Shown: positions 12,652-17,138 of the stretch, piece after piece
Layout of the letters: every line of letters begins with the position of its first letter
How positions within the stretch are numbered: position 1 is the stretch's first letter
From: Alphaproteobacteria bacterium UBA3307
Lineage (GTDB): Bacteria > Pseudomonadota > Alphaproteobacteria > RF32 > CAG-239
Direction of reading: 5' to 3'
Length of the DNA stretch: 61,140 nt
Assembly: GCA_002361365.1 (NCBI GenBank)
Contig: DEST01000115.1
Location: 1 to 61,140 of the forward strand
Notes under the pieces: model-generated
Told to the model about the DNA's origin: nothing
What the model saw: only the letters and a program-made list of their open reading frames with translations
Database searches by the model: none
Position numbers and translations under genes: made by a program

Positions 12652-12701
12652 AGTATAACACAGTTTTTACTTAATTTTGTGTTACATTTTTGTTACATTT
12701 T
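12652..12701 (-). promoter_or_regulatory. Predicted internal promoter with an 11-bp-phased direct repeat, TGTAACA-N4-TGTAACA, upstream of a TATACT -10
   Basis: The minus strand reads AAATGTAACAAAAATGTAACAC-N-TGTGTTATACT. It lies about 61 bp upstream of the ATG at 12619. The same architecture recurs at 17090..17138. Confidence 0.55.
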
Positions 12702-12751
12702 ATCTATCTTACTGAAAAAATGTTATTTTTGGCAATTTTGTCAGGTTAAAA

Positions 12752-15181
12752 TCAGGCAATATCCAAATATTTTGCCACAAATCCATCTTCGCCGTATTCT
12801 TTTATCAGTTGCTGTACCAGTAACACATTTTTACGACCGGAATTATATATGCGCAAATATTTACCTAAACCGCTCAAATCCACATCGAGAATCACCGATT
12901 CTCCGGTTACCGGGCGTGAAAGCAGAATGGCATACGGAAAATCACGATAACTTTTACCAAAAATAAAATCCAGCTCGTTCTGCGTCAGATTCCAGTTAGC
13001 ATAATCTTCCACTTGCGCTTGTGGATTGCGGAAGAATATCACGGTTTGGCATTGACCGCGAATCACCTCGCCAACTCCGAGTTTATCTACAATATTAGGT
13101 TGTTGAAAAGCACACAAATAAGCCTGACGTTTTTTACGGCCTTCTTGCAAACCTATAATGAAATAATCGCGGAACATAGGGTGTTTCAGCATTGGCGCCG
13201 TTTCATCTATCATAATCAATGACGGAACGCCGGTTTCTCCGGTTTCGGATTGAATACGATGCATAATATAACTAATAACTGCAGGCGCTAAATTCTCGTC
13301 TTCAAAAATATGTGTAAAATCGAACGCCATAAAGCGTCTGCTCTTCAAATCCAAACTATCGTCCTGACCATTAAAAATCGCCCCATACTGATCCGGATTT
13401 ACCCAACGATACAATTCTCGGCGCATATTGCCGGTCGGTGAAAAACAGCTTTTATACAAATTAGAGAGCAAACGTTCTTCCGGTCGCAAATAATCAAATG
13501 CAGTAGTCACGGCACGCGCAACTTCACGGTCTGCCAACGCATCATCCACCATCGTAATCGACTTCAGCCATCGCCGCAAAAAGGCACGATTTTCCGAGGT
13601 ATTGGCACAGTCAAACGGATTCAGCGAAACGTTCTTTTCATCACCGTCAAAACCGACATATGCTCCCTTAACAGCACGTGTAAAAATTTGCGCACCTAAG
13701 TGACGGTCAAAGAAAAATACGCGCAAATCTGCGTGACGCATTGCCTGTCCGGCTAAAAAGGTCAGTAAAGTCGTCTTACCTTGACCGGTAGGTCCGACAA
13801 TACAACAGTGAGCCACGGCAGATTCTTCACTACTAACGTGAAATTGAAAACGATAGGCCGAACCGCTCATTGTGCGAAAAATAGAAATTGCACCTTGCCC
13901 CCAGTCACTTTTGGCAAACCCCTCCGCCGGTTTATCCAGTGTTATAGCCATTGCAATGGCTCGTGATAAATAGCGATAGGTTCGCGGGTAGGTATCATAC
14001 GTCGGAAATTGTGTAAAGAACACAGCTTGTGCCACCCAACCTTCACGCACCGGAGTTACACCGAATGAACGGCAAATACGTTGAATTTCCGACTCTGCAA
14101 AATCAATTTCTTCTTTGCTACTGCCTTTAGCTATAATTGTCATCGAATATTCGGCCAACGATTGATAATCATTATCACTGTCATCAATGGATGCCAATGC
14201 CGTCGCATATTGTTCCACCACACCGCCGGAAAGACTAGTGGTCATAGCCATACGCTGTTGTTGCATCAACAATGCACGCGCCTCTGCGCGAAACAGCGGA
14301 CGTATGTTATGTATCAGTACCAGTTCGCAATCTATGGCGTTAAGTGAATAAATCATACTTTCATCCATAGCCTCGCCGGTGGCGCGAATCCCCATCGCTA
14401 TTTCGTATAAATCGTGGTCGCCGGAAAAAAAGTGAATAATTCCTTCTTCTTTGGTAAAGTGAATATGGTCAGCCGTCAGCATTTCACACAAACGTGCACC
14501 TTCGGTATTTCCCACCTTAGGAGTTGGCAAAGAGACCGGACTGCAAAGCTGTGCAAACAAATAAAATGGACTGTCTTTAGGGTCGCTGGTTTCGGTTTCG
14601 TACATAGGACTGATACCATATTCTCCCATTGTGGACATCAGACTTTGCGAAGCGTAGTTCAAATCTTTCAGCGCATCTTTTCGGTCTGCAACCGAAAGAA
14701 TTATGTAGTGCTTATTTTCATAAACCCTGTTCATATTCTCAAACCAAATTTGAGAAATTGTTTCTAATAGCGGATTATTAAAGTCGCGTTTTTCATTTTC
14801 AAGCGAATCATGACGTCGTGTAGTAATGACGCGGCATATCACCTGCATATTACCCAAGTCATCAAGCCACGATTTGCGTGCCTCCATCATAGAATACACC
14901 TTTTCTGCCGTAGCGGAAGATAAATCAACCCCCTCAGCTCTGAATACTCTGGCGTATGAATTGTTGCTGCACTGAATGGTAACACCGTCCGACATCAATT
15001 TTTGAAACGGTAAAAAGTCTGAAACGCGAGATTCACGCGGTTGCGGCAATACCCAATTACCAAATTTGGTGGAAAGCAATATGGCAAACGAGGCGGCCGA
15101 GGCAATTCCTATCAGCGCCACCGCTATTTCTATGTTACTCAGTCCGCGGACAAATATACTGAAAAAATCGTATTCATTCAT
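12752..15181 (-). CDS. virB4: VirB4 T4SS ATPase (809 aa)
   Basis: Walker A GPTGQGKTT, Walker B LIMIDETA, typical length, and an ATGA overlap with virB3. Confidence 0.92.
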   Translation of the reverse strand: MNEYDFFSIFVRGLSNIEIAVALIGIASAASFAILLSTKFGNWVLPQPRESRVSDFLPFQKLMSDGVTIQCSNNSYARVFRAEGVDLSSATAEKVYSMMEARKSWLDDLGNMQVICRVITTRRHDSLENEKRDFNNPLLETISQIWFENMNRVYENKHYIILSVADRKDALKDLNYASQSLMSTMGEYGISPMYETETSDPKDSPFYLFAQLCSPVSLPTPKVGNTEGARLCEMLTADHIHFTKEEGIIHFFSGDHDLYEIAMGIRATGEAMDESMIYSLNAIDCELVLIHNIRPLFRAEARALLMQQQRMAMTTSLSGGVVEQYATALASIDDSDNDYQSLAEYSMTIIAKGSSKEEIDFAESEIQRICRSFGVTPVREGWVAQAVFFTQFPTYDTYPRTYRYLSRAIAMAITLDKPAEGFAKSDWGQGAISIFRTMSGSAYRFQFHVSSEESAVAHCCIVGPTGQGKTTLLTFLAGQAMRHADLRVFFFDRHLGAQIFTRAVKGAYVGFDGDEKNVSLNPFDCANTSENRAFLRRWLKSITMVDDALADREVARAVTTAFDYLRPEERLLSNLYKSCFSPTGNMRRELYRWVNPDQYGAIFNGQDDSLDLKSRRFMAFDFTHIFEDENLAPAVISYIMHRIQSETGETGVPSLIMIDETAPMLKHPMFRDYFIIGLQEGRKKRQAYLCAFQQPNIVDKLGVGEVIRGQCQTVIFFRNPQAQVEDYANWNLTQNELDFIFGKSYRDFPYAILLSRPVTGESVILDVDLSGLGKYLRIYNSGRKNVLLVQQLIKEYGEDGFVAKYLDIA

Positions 15182-15468
15182 GGTACAAATTTATTCCCCG
15201 ATTCTGCATATAAGTTGGTTGTTTTTTTATAGGTTTGACCATACGCCTGCAACATTGTGGACAGATGAGGCTCTTTAATACCGGCAGCAATCAGCGCTAT
15301 GTGTGCGCCAATAATCGAAACAATAAAAATCATCGGATTTATGCCACCCAGACCAATACCCATAAACATTGCCGGAAATTGCACACCTAAGTTAATAATT
15401 GCCGGAATAAGCGGAGCCCATAAAACTTTTGGCGGCTGTGCCACGGCTTTTAAAATTTCTTCTCTCAT
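15178..15468 (-). CDS. virB3: VirB3-like small membrane protein (96 aa)
   Basis: Two hydrophobic segments (LWAPLIPAIINLGVQFPAMFMGIGL and IFIVSIIGAHIALIAAGI). Lies immediately upstream of virB4 and overlaps it. Confidence 0.8.
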   Translation of the reverse strand: MREEILKAVAQPPKVLWAPLIPAIINLGVQFPAMFMGIGLGGINPMIFIVSIIGAHIALIAAGIKEPHLSTMLQAYGQTYKKTTNLYAESGNKFVP

Positions 15469-15914
15469 CTTACTTTCTCCCTCAGTTCTTGTCTGAGTGC
15501 TCGTGCAAGCTGTGTATCTCTCACCTGCGTAATCGCGGAATGTTCTAAATTTTCATACACAGAACGGTCTGTCGGAATAATCAGTGAGCGCTTATTTTTT
15601 ATTTTTTCTGCCACCATTCCGGAAATATGAGACATTACTTGTGCCTCTTTATCTTTTTGTTCCGAATTGAGCAAACTTTCCAAGTTTGTCACCACTAACT
15701 CAGTACCTGCAGATTTTTGACGTACTACAAACTCATCGGCTTTTTTCAGTTGTTTAATGGCATACGCGCTTTTGTCACTCAAACGATGCATTGCGGAATT
15801 TTGTTCACCGGCAGTCAGCTGAGTTTCACCGGTACGGTTATCTTCCTGATAGGCGTGAGCCGGTGTTAAATATAAATAAACTGTCAACAAAGCTAAAATA
15901 ATTTTCATCCGCAA
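15465..15914 (-). CDS. Secreted 149-aa protein of unknown function between the pilin paralogs and virB3
   Basis: Signal peptide MRMKIILALLTVYLYLTPAHA. The mature part is hydrophilic and helical. Its stop overlaps the virB3 start (ATGA). Confidence 0.6.
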   Translation of the reverse strand: MRMKIILALLTVYLYLTPAHAYQEDNRTGETQLTAGEQNSAMHRLSDKSAYAIKQLKKADEFVVRQKSAGTELVVTNLESLLNSEQKDKEAQVMSHISGMVAEKIKNKRSLIIPTDRSVYENLEHSAITQVRDTQLARALRQELREKVR

Positions 15915-15947
15915 TATTCTCTTATTTTAAATGTGTTACCTCAAGCT

Positions 15948-16651: not shown

Positions 16652-16671
16652 AATACCTCCTTCGTAGCTAT

Positions 16672-16698
16672 GGAGAGAAAGCACAAGGCTCTCTCTCC
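16672..16698 (-). promoter_or_regulatory. Stem-loop between the first and second pilin genes (possible attenuator or mRNA-stabilising hairpin)
   Basis: GGAGAGA(A)AGC...GCT(C)TCTCTCC is an inverted repeat. It is not followed by a T-run on the coding (minus) strand. Confidence 0.45.
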
Positions 16699-16722
16699 TT
16701 TGCGACATTTTATTAAGCAATC

Positions 16723-17055
16723 TTATTGCAAGGAATCCGCAAATCCGCTTGTTTGGTCATCATCATTGTTAGCGTAGTTAATAATCGAGCTTGCCGCTGC
16801 CACAACTGCCAAACCAAAGGCAAGTGCTGCAAACCACGCCCACTTTAATTTGCCGAAAATTGCTTGGAAAGCCAAAGCTACCAAACCGAAACCACCGATA
16901 ATGAAAATAACCCACTTAACGTTTTTGAACAAGTCGGTCAATTTATTTTTAGCGGTTGTAAATACCGTAGAAGCCTCAGCATCACCTGTCATTGCAACGC
17001 AAAAAATCAGCGTCAACATCAAAAAGGTGCAAAGATTATTTTTTAAGAATTTCAT
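16723..17055 (-). CDS. virB2: VirB2/TrbC-like T4SS pilin paralog 1 (110 aa), first gene of the operon
   Basis: AGGAGA before the ATG. Signal peptide ending GDAEA, followed by two hydrophobic helices (VIFIIGGFGLVALAFQAIF and AWFAALAFGLAVVAAASSII). Confidence 0.75.
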   Translation of the reverse strand: MKFLKNNLCTFLMLTLIFCVAMTGDAEASTVFTTAKNKLTDLFKNVKWVIFIIGGFGLVALAFQAIFGKLKWAWFAALAFGLAVVAAASSIINYANNDDDQTSGFADSLQ

Positions 17056-17089
17056 TTTTTTCTCCTAAAACATTTTTCACTACATTTTT

Positions 17090-17138
17090 ATAATATCACA
17101 TTTTTGAGCGAATTTGTGTTAAACTTTTGTTACATTTG
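17090..17138 (-). promoter_or_regulatory. Predicted T4SS operon promoter with the same phased repeat (TGTAACA-N4-TTTAACA) and a TATTAT -10
   Basis: The minus strand reads AAATGTAACAAAAGTTTAACAC-N-TGTGATATTAT. It lies about 62 bp upstream of the ATG at 17055. Confidence 0.55.

Follow-up and report, generated by a model that had tools for sequence, protein, structure and literature searches.

A phased TGTAACA-type direct repeat precedes two putative promoters of a type IV secretion locus in an uncultured gut alphaproteobacterium

In a 61,140-nucleotide contig of Alphaproteobacteria bacterium UBA3307 (DEST01000115.1, assembly GCA_002361365.1; positions 1 to 61,140 of the forward strand, here called the window), a 25-bp element built on two 7-nt direct repeats precedes both a type IV secretion system (T4SS) operon that begins with virB2 genes and a block of five genes that follows virB4. 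We think it probable, from the sequence, that the two elements are operators for a dimer of an OmpR/PhoB-family response regulator that would co-activate the virB2 promoter, PvirB2, and an internal promoter of the five-gene block. PhoB or a PhoB-like paralogue is our leading, and tentative, candidate for that regulator, a choice guided by the format of the sites. To our knowledge, no experimental findings exist for the uncultured alphaproteobacteria, from gut and rumen, in which this T4SS occurs, and we found no papers on the T4SS of RF32-type Alphaproteobacteria.

Results

The element has the sequence AAATGTAACAAAA(A/G)T(G/T)TAACACAAA and occurs twice in the 61 kb. As a chance control, we used 100 dinucleotide-preserving shuffles of the window, none of which contained it; allowing up to three mismatches in the 25-mer still returned only the same two sites and nothing in the shuffles, and the strict motif TGTAACANNNNTKTAACA likewise had two matches in the window versus none in the shuffles. 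Element A (AAATGTAACAAAAATGTAACACAAA; 12700 to 12676, minus strand) has the repeat form TGTAACA-AAAA-TGTAACA, with its two identical heptamers at 12697-12691 and 12686-12680. Element B (AAATGTAACAAAAGTTTAACACAAA; 17137 to 17113, minus strand) has the form TGTAACA-AAAG-TTTAACA, with TGTAACA at 17134-17128 and TTTAACA at 17123-17117. At both sites the heptamers start 11 bp apart.

Downstream of each element lies an extended −10 box on the same strand. The putative internal promoter has TGTTATACT at 12660 to 12652 (TG at 12660-12659, one base, and then TATACT at 12657-12652), with 22 nt between the end of the proximal heptamer and TATACT. The putative promoter of the virB2 operon has TGATATTAT at 17098 to 17090 (TG at 17098-17097 and TATTAT at 17095-17090), with a corresponding distance of 21 nt, and its −10 box is followed on the 3′ side by a conserved AATGTAGT/TGTA start region. 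Both boxes fit TGnTAYWMT and both have the layout expected of extended −10 sigma-70 promoters, in which a TG one base before a TATAAT-like hexamer makes the −35 dispensable. A promoter scan found no TTGACA-like hexamer 16 to 18 nt before either −10 box and listed no canonical −35/−10 promoter at either site, and we rejected that promoter class for both. The similarity between the two sites runs from the repeat via CACAAA to the TGTG-TAT box.

An earlier reading of this DNA, made from the sequence alone and referred to here as the sequence-only reading, had described a tandem repeat plus −10 box ahead of both units, with heptamers one helical turn apart and abutting the −35 position of two promoter-like boxes. 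Its sequences and coordinates proved correct as written, as did the distances from the proximal heptamer to the start codon, 61 nt for the ATG at 12619 and 62 nt for the ATG at 17055. It had also placed one copy immediately after the virB4 stop. Counted with its stop codon, the virB4 open reading frame (ORF) ends at 12752, which puts the start of element A 51 nt downstream; a promoter/terminator scan showed no terminator-like site between virB4 and the gene after it. That next gene, the first of the five-gene block, has a ribosome-binding site (RBS), AGGAGG, at 12630-12625 (RBS and start codon, 12617 to 12630, minus strand). No further copies of the element were found in the virB8-virB10 region of the operon. 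The statement that the motif occurs nowhere else in the window holds for the strict motif only, since a related box (17325-17340) and a weak copy (17228-17249) lie on the plus strand of the adjoining divergent region.

We next considered related genomes. At least 253 genome contigs had a VirB4 match, and we took the best 80 (L001-L080; VirB4 identity, 74 to 93%), all of them metagenome-assembled genomes of uncultured Alphaproteobacteria from gut or rumen, with CAG:495 and Candidatus Scatocola types among them. Loci L001-L008 constitute the window's sub-clade. The positions of both promoters were kept across the 80 genomes. Across 1.57 Mb of related loci, a weight matrix derived from the repeat itself had 72 matches, every one of them at these promoter positions, versus about 1 per 40 shuffled loci; the background frequency in AT-rich DNA that would have counted against the motif was therefore not what we saw. 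A generalized pattern gave 80 matches in the 80 loci versus 2 to 6 in shuffles. Of these matches, 69 lay in the two promoter regions, and a further 3 occupied the same position classes where a locus lacked the virB2 anchor.

The orientation of the element differed between clades. The forward copy adjoining the −10 box, at virB2 and after virB4, was limited to L001-L008. Almost all other species had exactly one copy, with the consensus CTGTAACAAAAAATTCACAG (TGTAACA-AAAA-ATTCACA type), on the opposite strand, 110 to 135 bp upstream of the virB2 ATG and about 90 to 100 bp upstream of the virB2 promoter. The expectation of conservation in relatives was thus borne out for the promoter positions and failed for the forward repeat, which is not lineage-wide. 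In the majority clade, the virB2 promoter has the form CTGGMA-N18-TAnnnT; in the window's sub-clade, the −35-like CTGGMA is absent and the forward repeat takes about −52 to −35. A sigma-54 reading of the majority-clade CTGG was rejected: the GC after CTGG is not conserved, 8 nt lie between GG and GC where GC is present (GG-N10-GC is needed), and the TAnnnT hexamer lies 24 nt from the start of CTGG. Loci L009-L079 also have, 16 nt from the inverted element on the side of the virB2 promoter, a conserved AAAACAATnnGTTR block. This block agrees at 8 of 9 positions with the IHF consensus WATCAANNNNTTR, and the likeness suggests a bent upstream-site architecture.

The spacer after virB4 was short in every related locus (median, 79 nt from stop to start). 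A TGnTAnnnT box was present in 56 of 78 such spacers, 25 to 38 nt upstream of the GGAGG RBS, compared with 18% of shuffled spacers, and it therefore appears that an operon-internal promoter is widespread in the lineage. This agrees with the proposal of the sequence-only reading that the five-gene block has its own promoter. In the majority clade (L009-L036), the first ~20 nt after the virB4 stop hold a strongly conserved GGTTTTTnAAAAAGTnTTT instead of the TGTAACA repeat, and an A/T-rich GGTTTTTnAAAAAGT occupies the equivalent place; GGTTTTTnAAAAAGTnTTT might resemble an UP element or be bound by a different factor. Individual loci showed larger rearrangements. L008 has an insertion of ~470 bp between virB4 and the promoter cassette (12430-12890), and the pilus-virB2 spacer of L020 holds four tandem copies of a ~30-bp unit that is CTCCTCGGAATGACAATATAAAAAAAG-like.

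The window and L001-L008 together supply 17 forward sites. From the repeat to the −10 box their sequence was variable and the distance was kept: the TG of the extended −10 starts 18 to 19 nt after the element in 12 of them and 29 nt after it in the remaining 5. The architecture of element B is the same in L003 and is shifted one helical turn further upstream in L001, L002, L004, L005, and L007. Measured from the end of the proximal heptamer, the −10 hexamer lies at a distance of 10 nt (at the pilus box described below), 21 to 22 nt, or 32 nt. The inverted copy, in turn, lies 45 to 46 nt from the −35-like CTGG in 17 loci and 56 to 57 nt from it in 33 loci. All of these steps equal one helical turn, which is the signature of a protein that has to keep to one side of the helix with respect to RNA polymerase. 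Selection thus appears to act on the repeat and its spacing and not on the intervening sequence. In L001 (12434-14112), the element, the −10 box, the RBS, and the first post-virB4 gene have been duplicated together, and the resulting paralogues are of 232 and 253 amino acids.

The format of the elements matches sites of the OmpR/PhoB family, in line with the type of site, that of a winged-helix response regulator, named by the sequence-only reading. The PHO box is defined as a pair of 7-nt direct repeats separated by 4 A/T-rich nucleotides (PMC3131613), and elements A and B both show this arrangement with its 11-bp phasing. Sites of the TGTAACA type are bound in vivo by Escherichia coli PhoB, whose sites in chromatin immunoprecipitation sequencing include TGTAACAGAAATATCACA, TGTAACCCGTATGTAACA, TGTAATAAAAGCGTAAAC, and ATTCACAGCACTGTCATA (PMC10294691). 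The heptamer variants of the sub-clade (TGTCACA, TGTCATA, TTTCACA, ATTCACA, and GTTCACA) all lie within the envelope of those E. coli sites, and TGTAACA itself differs from the textbook (C)TGTCATA (consensus CTGTCAT) at 2 of 7 aligned positions.

We then looked for the exact 22-mer AAATGTAACAAAANTKTAACAY in metagenome contigs and obtained 101 matching stretches, in which 71 sites had a downstream ORF. The 22-mer precedes pstC within a complete phoR-pstS-pstCAB-phoU-phoB-ppk1 cluster on 10 contigs. On 2 contigs it lies upstream of pstS, where four phased TGTAACA repeats abut the −10, and on 5 it lies upstream of a TIGR00153/DUF47 gene that is followed by a gene for a PiT-like permease. In several unrelated organisms the 22-mer is therefore a Pho-type box. 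In a marine low-GC organism (L145, 9133-9154), it sits between pstS and pstC in a phoR-pstSCAB-phoU-phoB-ppk1 cluster, an operon-internal Pho-type box that parallels the post-virB4 site. Matches next to UgpC/MsmX-class genes were set aside as ambiguous, since these genes encode generic sugar or glycerol-phosphate ATP-binding cassette ATPases. A further group (L115, L155, L163, L129, L177, and L138/L174) contains 11-bp-phased arrays of many TGTAACA units that look iteron-like or like multisite operators.

Four of the metagenome contigs (L099, L101, L112, and L162) showed two repeats, 17 to 18 nt, a TGnTAnnnT box, a AATGTAGT-like start region, and GGAGG, in that order. The gene behind this candidate promoter encodes a Cys-rich (8 to 9% Cys) secreted protein, of which three complete copies have 885 to 1011 amino acids. 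These proteins are 25 to 79% identical to one another, and the exact 22-mer is kept on all four contigs. The tetranucleotide correlation to the window was 0.94 for L112, 0.91 for L099, and 0.90 for L162, the highest values among metagenome matches of at least 4 kb (L101 is too short); the range within the lineage is 0.85 to 0.94. We dropped an attempt to assign L112 and its relatives to the lineage through the genes that flank the Cys-rich gene when no orthologues of these were found. The Cys-rich protein gene probably belongs to the same predicted regulon, and the promoters found so far with this architecture number three (virB2, post-virB4, and the Cys-rich gene).

In the divergent region between the T4SS and a pilus operon, a box at 17324-17341 on the plus strand (ATTAAC-TGTAT-TTTAACA) is followed after 10 nt by TATCTT at 17352-17357. 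We regard the whole, 17324 to 17357, as a credible candidate for the pilus promoter. The box (ATTAAC-N5-TTTAACA) is nearly invariant across L001-L036 and further loci, is kept in most of the lineage, lies ~70 nt before the first pilus gene, and belongs to the same half-site family as the T4SS elements. It is also a perfect CtrA box, TTAA-N7-TTAAC, at 17325-17340, in the canonical class-II position. The looser pattern KTAAC-N6-KTAAC has 4 matches in the window versus 0.49 expected, one of them at this pilus box (17325-17340, plus strand); TTAA-N7-TTAAC is not enriched, with 3 matches versus 1.6 expected. A palindromic TTAAAAAGATTTTAAC at 50790-50806, which has TTAA-N7-TTAAC on both strands, is by this count compatible with chance. 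It lies in the divergent spacer that precedes a ParA/MinD-like gene and a gene for a DnaJ-domain protein.

Two other features of this region were noted. The weak, degenerate copy at 17228 to 17249 (plus strand) reads AAGTAAATAAAATGTAAAAATA and falls within a block, 17215-17250, that is conserved also in L001-L030. The minus strand of this block reads TTTTTACATTTTATTTAC, or TTATCAATTTATTTAC in other clades, and is followed by a TGnTAnAA-like box and CGTAT; the block might serve as a second promoter or be bound by another protein. Finally, the sequence-only reading had pointed to a TTGACA facing the pilus operon. The hexamer is indeed there, at 17136-17141 on the plus strand, but no −10-like hexamer lies 16 to 18 nt after it, it is absent from the output of the promoter scan, and it is conserved in L003 only. 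We rejected it as a promoter of the pilus operon, and it is probably fortuitous.

Discussion

The non-random sequence identity of the two elements, their conservation and quantized spacing, and the association of their 22-mer with Pho genes elsewhere are direct observations. The mechanism that we propose to account for them is as follows. A phosphorylated regulator would bind the two 7-nt repeats head to tail, at a predicted position of about −52 to −35, on the same helical face at both sites and immediately upstream of two sigma-70 extended −10 promoters that have no −35 hexamer. We infer that the bound regulator acts as an activator rather than a repressor, recruiting or stabilizing RNA polymerase, so that the pilins and the downstream secreted components would be induced together. 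Transcription starting from the predicted promoter at 17098-17090 would cover the three virB2 genes, virB3, and virB4, and the putative internal promoter at 12660-12652 would add transcription of the five genes on top of read-through from virB4. The sequence identifies the family of the putative regulator with confidence and the individual member tentatively. If the regulator is PhoB-like, then phosphate limitation would be its cue.

Several observations weigh against this interpretation. Extended −10 promoters can fire without any activator. In canonical PhoB promoters, the box replaces the −35 and ends ~10 nt before the −10; elements A and B end 21 to 22 nt before it, on the same face. The excess distance is one helical turn, and the −35 hexamer is absent as in PhoB promoters; PhoB boxes are described as having "strict spacing" (PMC10294691). 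The format of the Pho box therefore fits and its canonical position does not, and membership of the elements in that class is not established. Site A, moreover, is an exact match to the WalR/VicR consensus, TGTWAHA-N4-TGTWAHA, which is also given as TGTWAH-N5-TGTWAH (PMC4168254), so the motif points to a regulator family and not to a member of it. WalRK is a system of Firmicutes; the host here is alphaproteobacterial, and the match is therefore a resemblance and not a sign of membership. We found no response regulator encoded in the window, in the 10-kb flanks, or in the 80 related loci. Searches by tblastn with CtrA, OmpR, and PhoB probes of approximate sequence returned nothing in the window or L001-L080, and the Pfam listings of the genes in both 10-kb flanks included no regulator; on these grounds we rejected a locally encoded regulator. 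Nor were any pst or pho genes found within the lineage DNA examined. Most relatives lack the forward element at these positions, and co-regulation of this form would therefore be recent and clade-specific. Lastly, the contigs with the Cys-rich gene likely belong to the window's lineage, an assignment drawn from composition and promoter similarity.

A more far-reaching scenario is that the T4SS was rewired in one sub-clade. The distal inverted Pho-type box would have been turned around, moved to the core promoter, and copied to the operon-internal promoter and to the gene for a Cys-rich surface protein, placing all of them in a PhoB phosphate-starvation regulon. As a joint claim this is rather doubtful. 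Were it true, the regulon would comprise the pilins, the five secreted T4SS-associated proteins, and the giant Cys-rich protein, and this secretion or adhesion apparatus would be deployed in response to phosphate limitation in the gut.

It is also conceivable, but in our judgment unlikely, that there is no dedicated regulator, and that the sites arose when a promoter was copied to a second place or constitute a factor-independent element with curved or UP-like phased A-tracts. The similarity of the sites extends beyond the repeat through CACAAA to the TGTG-TAT box, the promoter cassette has been mobile by duplication in L001, the element is rich in A, its AAAA runs recurring every 11 bp, extended −10 promoters can dispense with an activator, and the majority clade has its A/T-rich GGTTTTTnAAAAAGT at the equivalent place after virB4. 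Such a reading would not explain why conservation is seen at the G and C positions of the heptamers and not in the spacer that separates the repeat from the −10, or why the variants remain inside the known envelope of protein recognition. It also sits poorly with an inverted core kept at phase-locked distances across ~50 species, with an identical 22-mer kept before proteins that are only 25% identical, and with the ties of the same sequence to Pho genes in unrelated organisms.

A protein could bind these sites and yet not be the activator that we propose. Binding by CtrA, a cell-cycle response regulator of the OmpR family whose box is typically found at −35, seems distinctly improbable to us. 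Such binding would tie both the T4SS and the type IVb pilus to cell-cycle control. The alphaproteobacterial host, the nearly invariant pilus box, which has the perfect TTAA-N7-TTAAC form and ends 10 nt before a TATNNT hexamer, and the TTAAC of the proximal half of site B all speak for CtrA, which fits the pilus box well. It fits the T4SS sites poorly, as these read GTAA-N7-GTAAC (A) and GTAA-N7-TTAAC (B) rather than as CtrA boxes, and the C at the third position in sub-clade variants (TTCAC, GTCAC, and GTCAT) breaks the TTAA core yet agrees with PhoB sites; the CtrA pattern on its own, moreover, is not enriched in the window, as noted above. We consider it highly improbable that the bound protein is a repressor, occluding RNA polymerase, or an anti-silencer that counters a MucR/H-NS-like silencer on AT-rich DNA. 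The core promoters, with near-consensus extended −10 boxes, could fire unaided, the box is outside the canonical activating position, and PhoB itself is a dual regulator according to site position (PMC10294691). Against repression, the site lies upstream of the −35 position and not over the −10 or the start, the quantized spacing on one face is the signature of contact between an activator and polymerase, and the canonical −35, CTGGMA, which is present in the majority clade, was lost in the sub-clade exactly where the forward box appeared.

Control of T4SS promoters by the OmpR family, as we favor here, is a well-known kind of regulation and not a new one. In Agrobacterium, the vir boxes of VirG represent comparable OmpR-family control of a VirB-type T4SS. 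The PmrA site is reportedly (Zusman et al. 2007) a tandemly repeated sequence that precedes the −10 by a constant distance, and its repeat is of the TTAATATT type. That case differs from ours in the type of secretion system, which is type IVB and from Gammaproteobacteria, and in the repeat sequence. PmrA, a winged-helix response regulator, co-regulates the Dot/Icm genes of Legionella and Coxiella together with scattered effector genes (PMC6989116). Closer to our system, the chromosomal OmpR-family regulator of the BatR/BatS pair controls the virB2 promoter in Bartonella (PMC5381568). Both cases concern an alphaproteobacterial VirB-type T4SS with an OmpR-family site, predicted in ours, at the virB2 promoter, but the BatR site lies ~300 bp upstream of virB2, whereas the element described here adjoins the core promoter and is duplicated at an internal promoter.

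With the PhoB promoters of E. coli and rhizobia, our sites share 7-nt repeats spaced at 11 bp, a 4-nt A/T spacer, the lack of a −35 hexamer, and heptamers from the experimentally bound set (TGTAACA, TGTCACA, and ATTCACA); one difference is that the targets here are T4SS and surface-protein genes and not genes for phosphate acquisition. With the CtrA box, found at the −35 of Caulobacter promoters including that of pilA, they share 11-bp-phased half-sites near −35 and an alphaproteobacterial host, but the first half-site position is G in the T4SS elements, and the TTAA core is disrupted in clade variants. The finding provides a testable handle on when uncultured gut Alphaproteobacteria express a lineage-conserved, uncharacterized T4SS. 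It is also a natural example of cis-regulatory turnover, in which the orientation of a box varies over ~80 species with its distances locked to whole helical turns, and the motif could be used in complete genomes to define the regulon and, within it, candidate effectors or adhesins, of which the Cys-rich protein is an example.

Organization of the locus

All of the T4SS genes lie on the minus strand. The upstream transcription unit, 12752 to 17055, encodes three VirB2/TrbC pilin paralogues, a 149-amino-acid signal-peptide protein, a VirB3-like protein, and VirB4 (virB4, 12752-15181). It is followed by the five-gene block, 2984 to 12619, with products of 321, 507, 425, 448, and 1501 amino acids that have no relatives in Pfam, NCBIfam, or PDB, and then by genes for two VirB8 paralogues. 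Beyond the left edge of the window, the operon continues with VirB9/CagX, a 1621-amino-acid protein, and a 1425-amino-acid VirB10/TrbI (L182, 10767-20750). All five block proteins are predicted to have an N-terminal signal peptide and none to be a multi-pass membrane protein, and no multi-pass VirB6-like protein was seen among them. The T4SS is atypical in having three VirB2 and two VirB8 paralogues and in having five signal-peptide proteins in the place expected for VirB5-VirB7. The first post-virB4 gene is highly variable between species, and the 321-amino-acid protein of the window has matches in only 26 of the 80 loci.

The locus is chromosomal and lineage-conserved and not part of a plasmid. 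Its surroundings are chromosomal housekeeping genes, and we rejected a plasmid or integrative and conjugative element as its origin because a megablast search of PLSDB gave no match and the locus is kept in the at least 253 genome contigs. The divergent operon, which starts at 17426, encodes a type IVb pilus of the R64 thin-pilus type, with a TcpQ-like protein, a secretin, PilO, an ATPase, and a platform protein. Proteins with ankyrin repeats are often found among the T4SS effectors of other bacteria. One such protein is encoded ~43 kb from the T4SS, at 60074-60952 on the minus strand, with no TGTAACA element upstream of its gene; in L185 (12750-13565) it is called as a protein of 271 amino acids.

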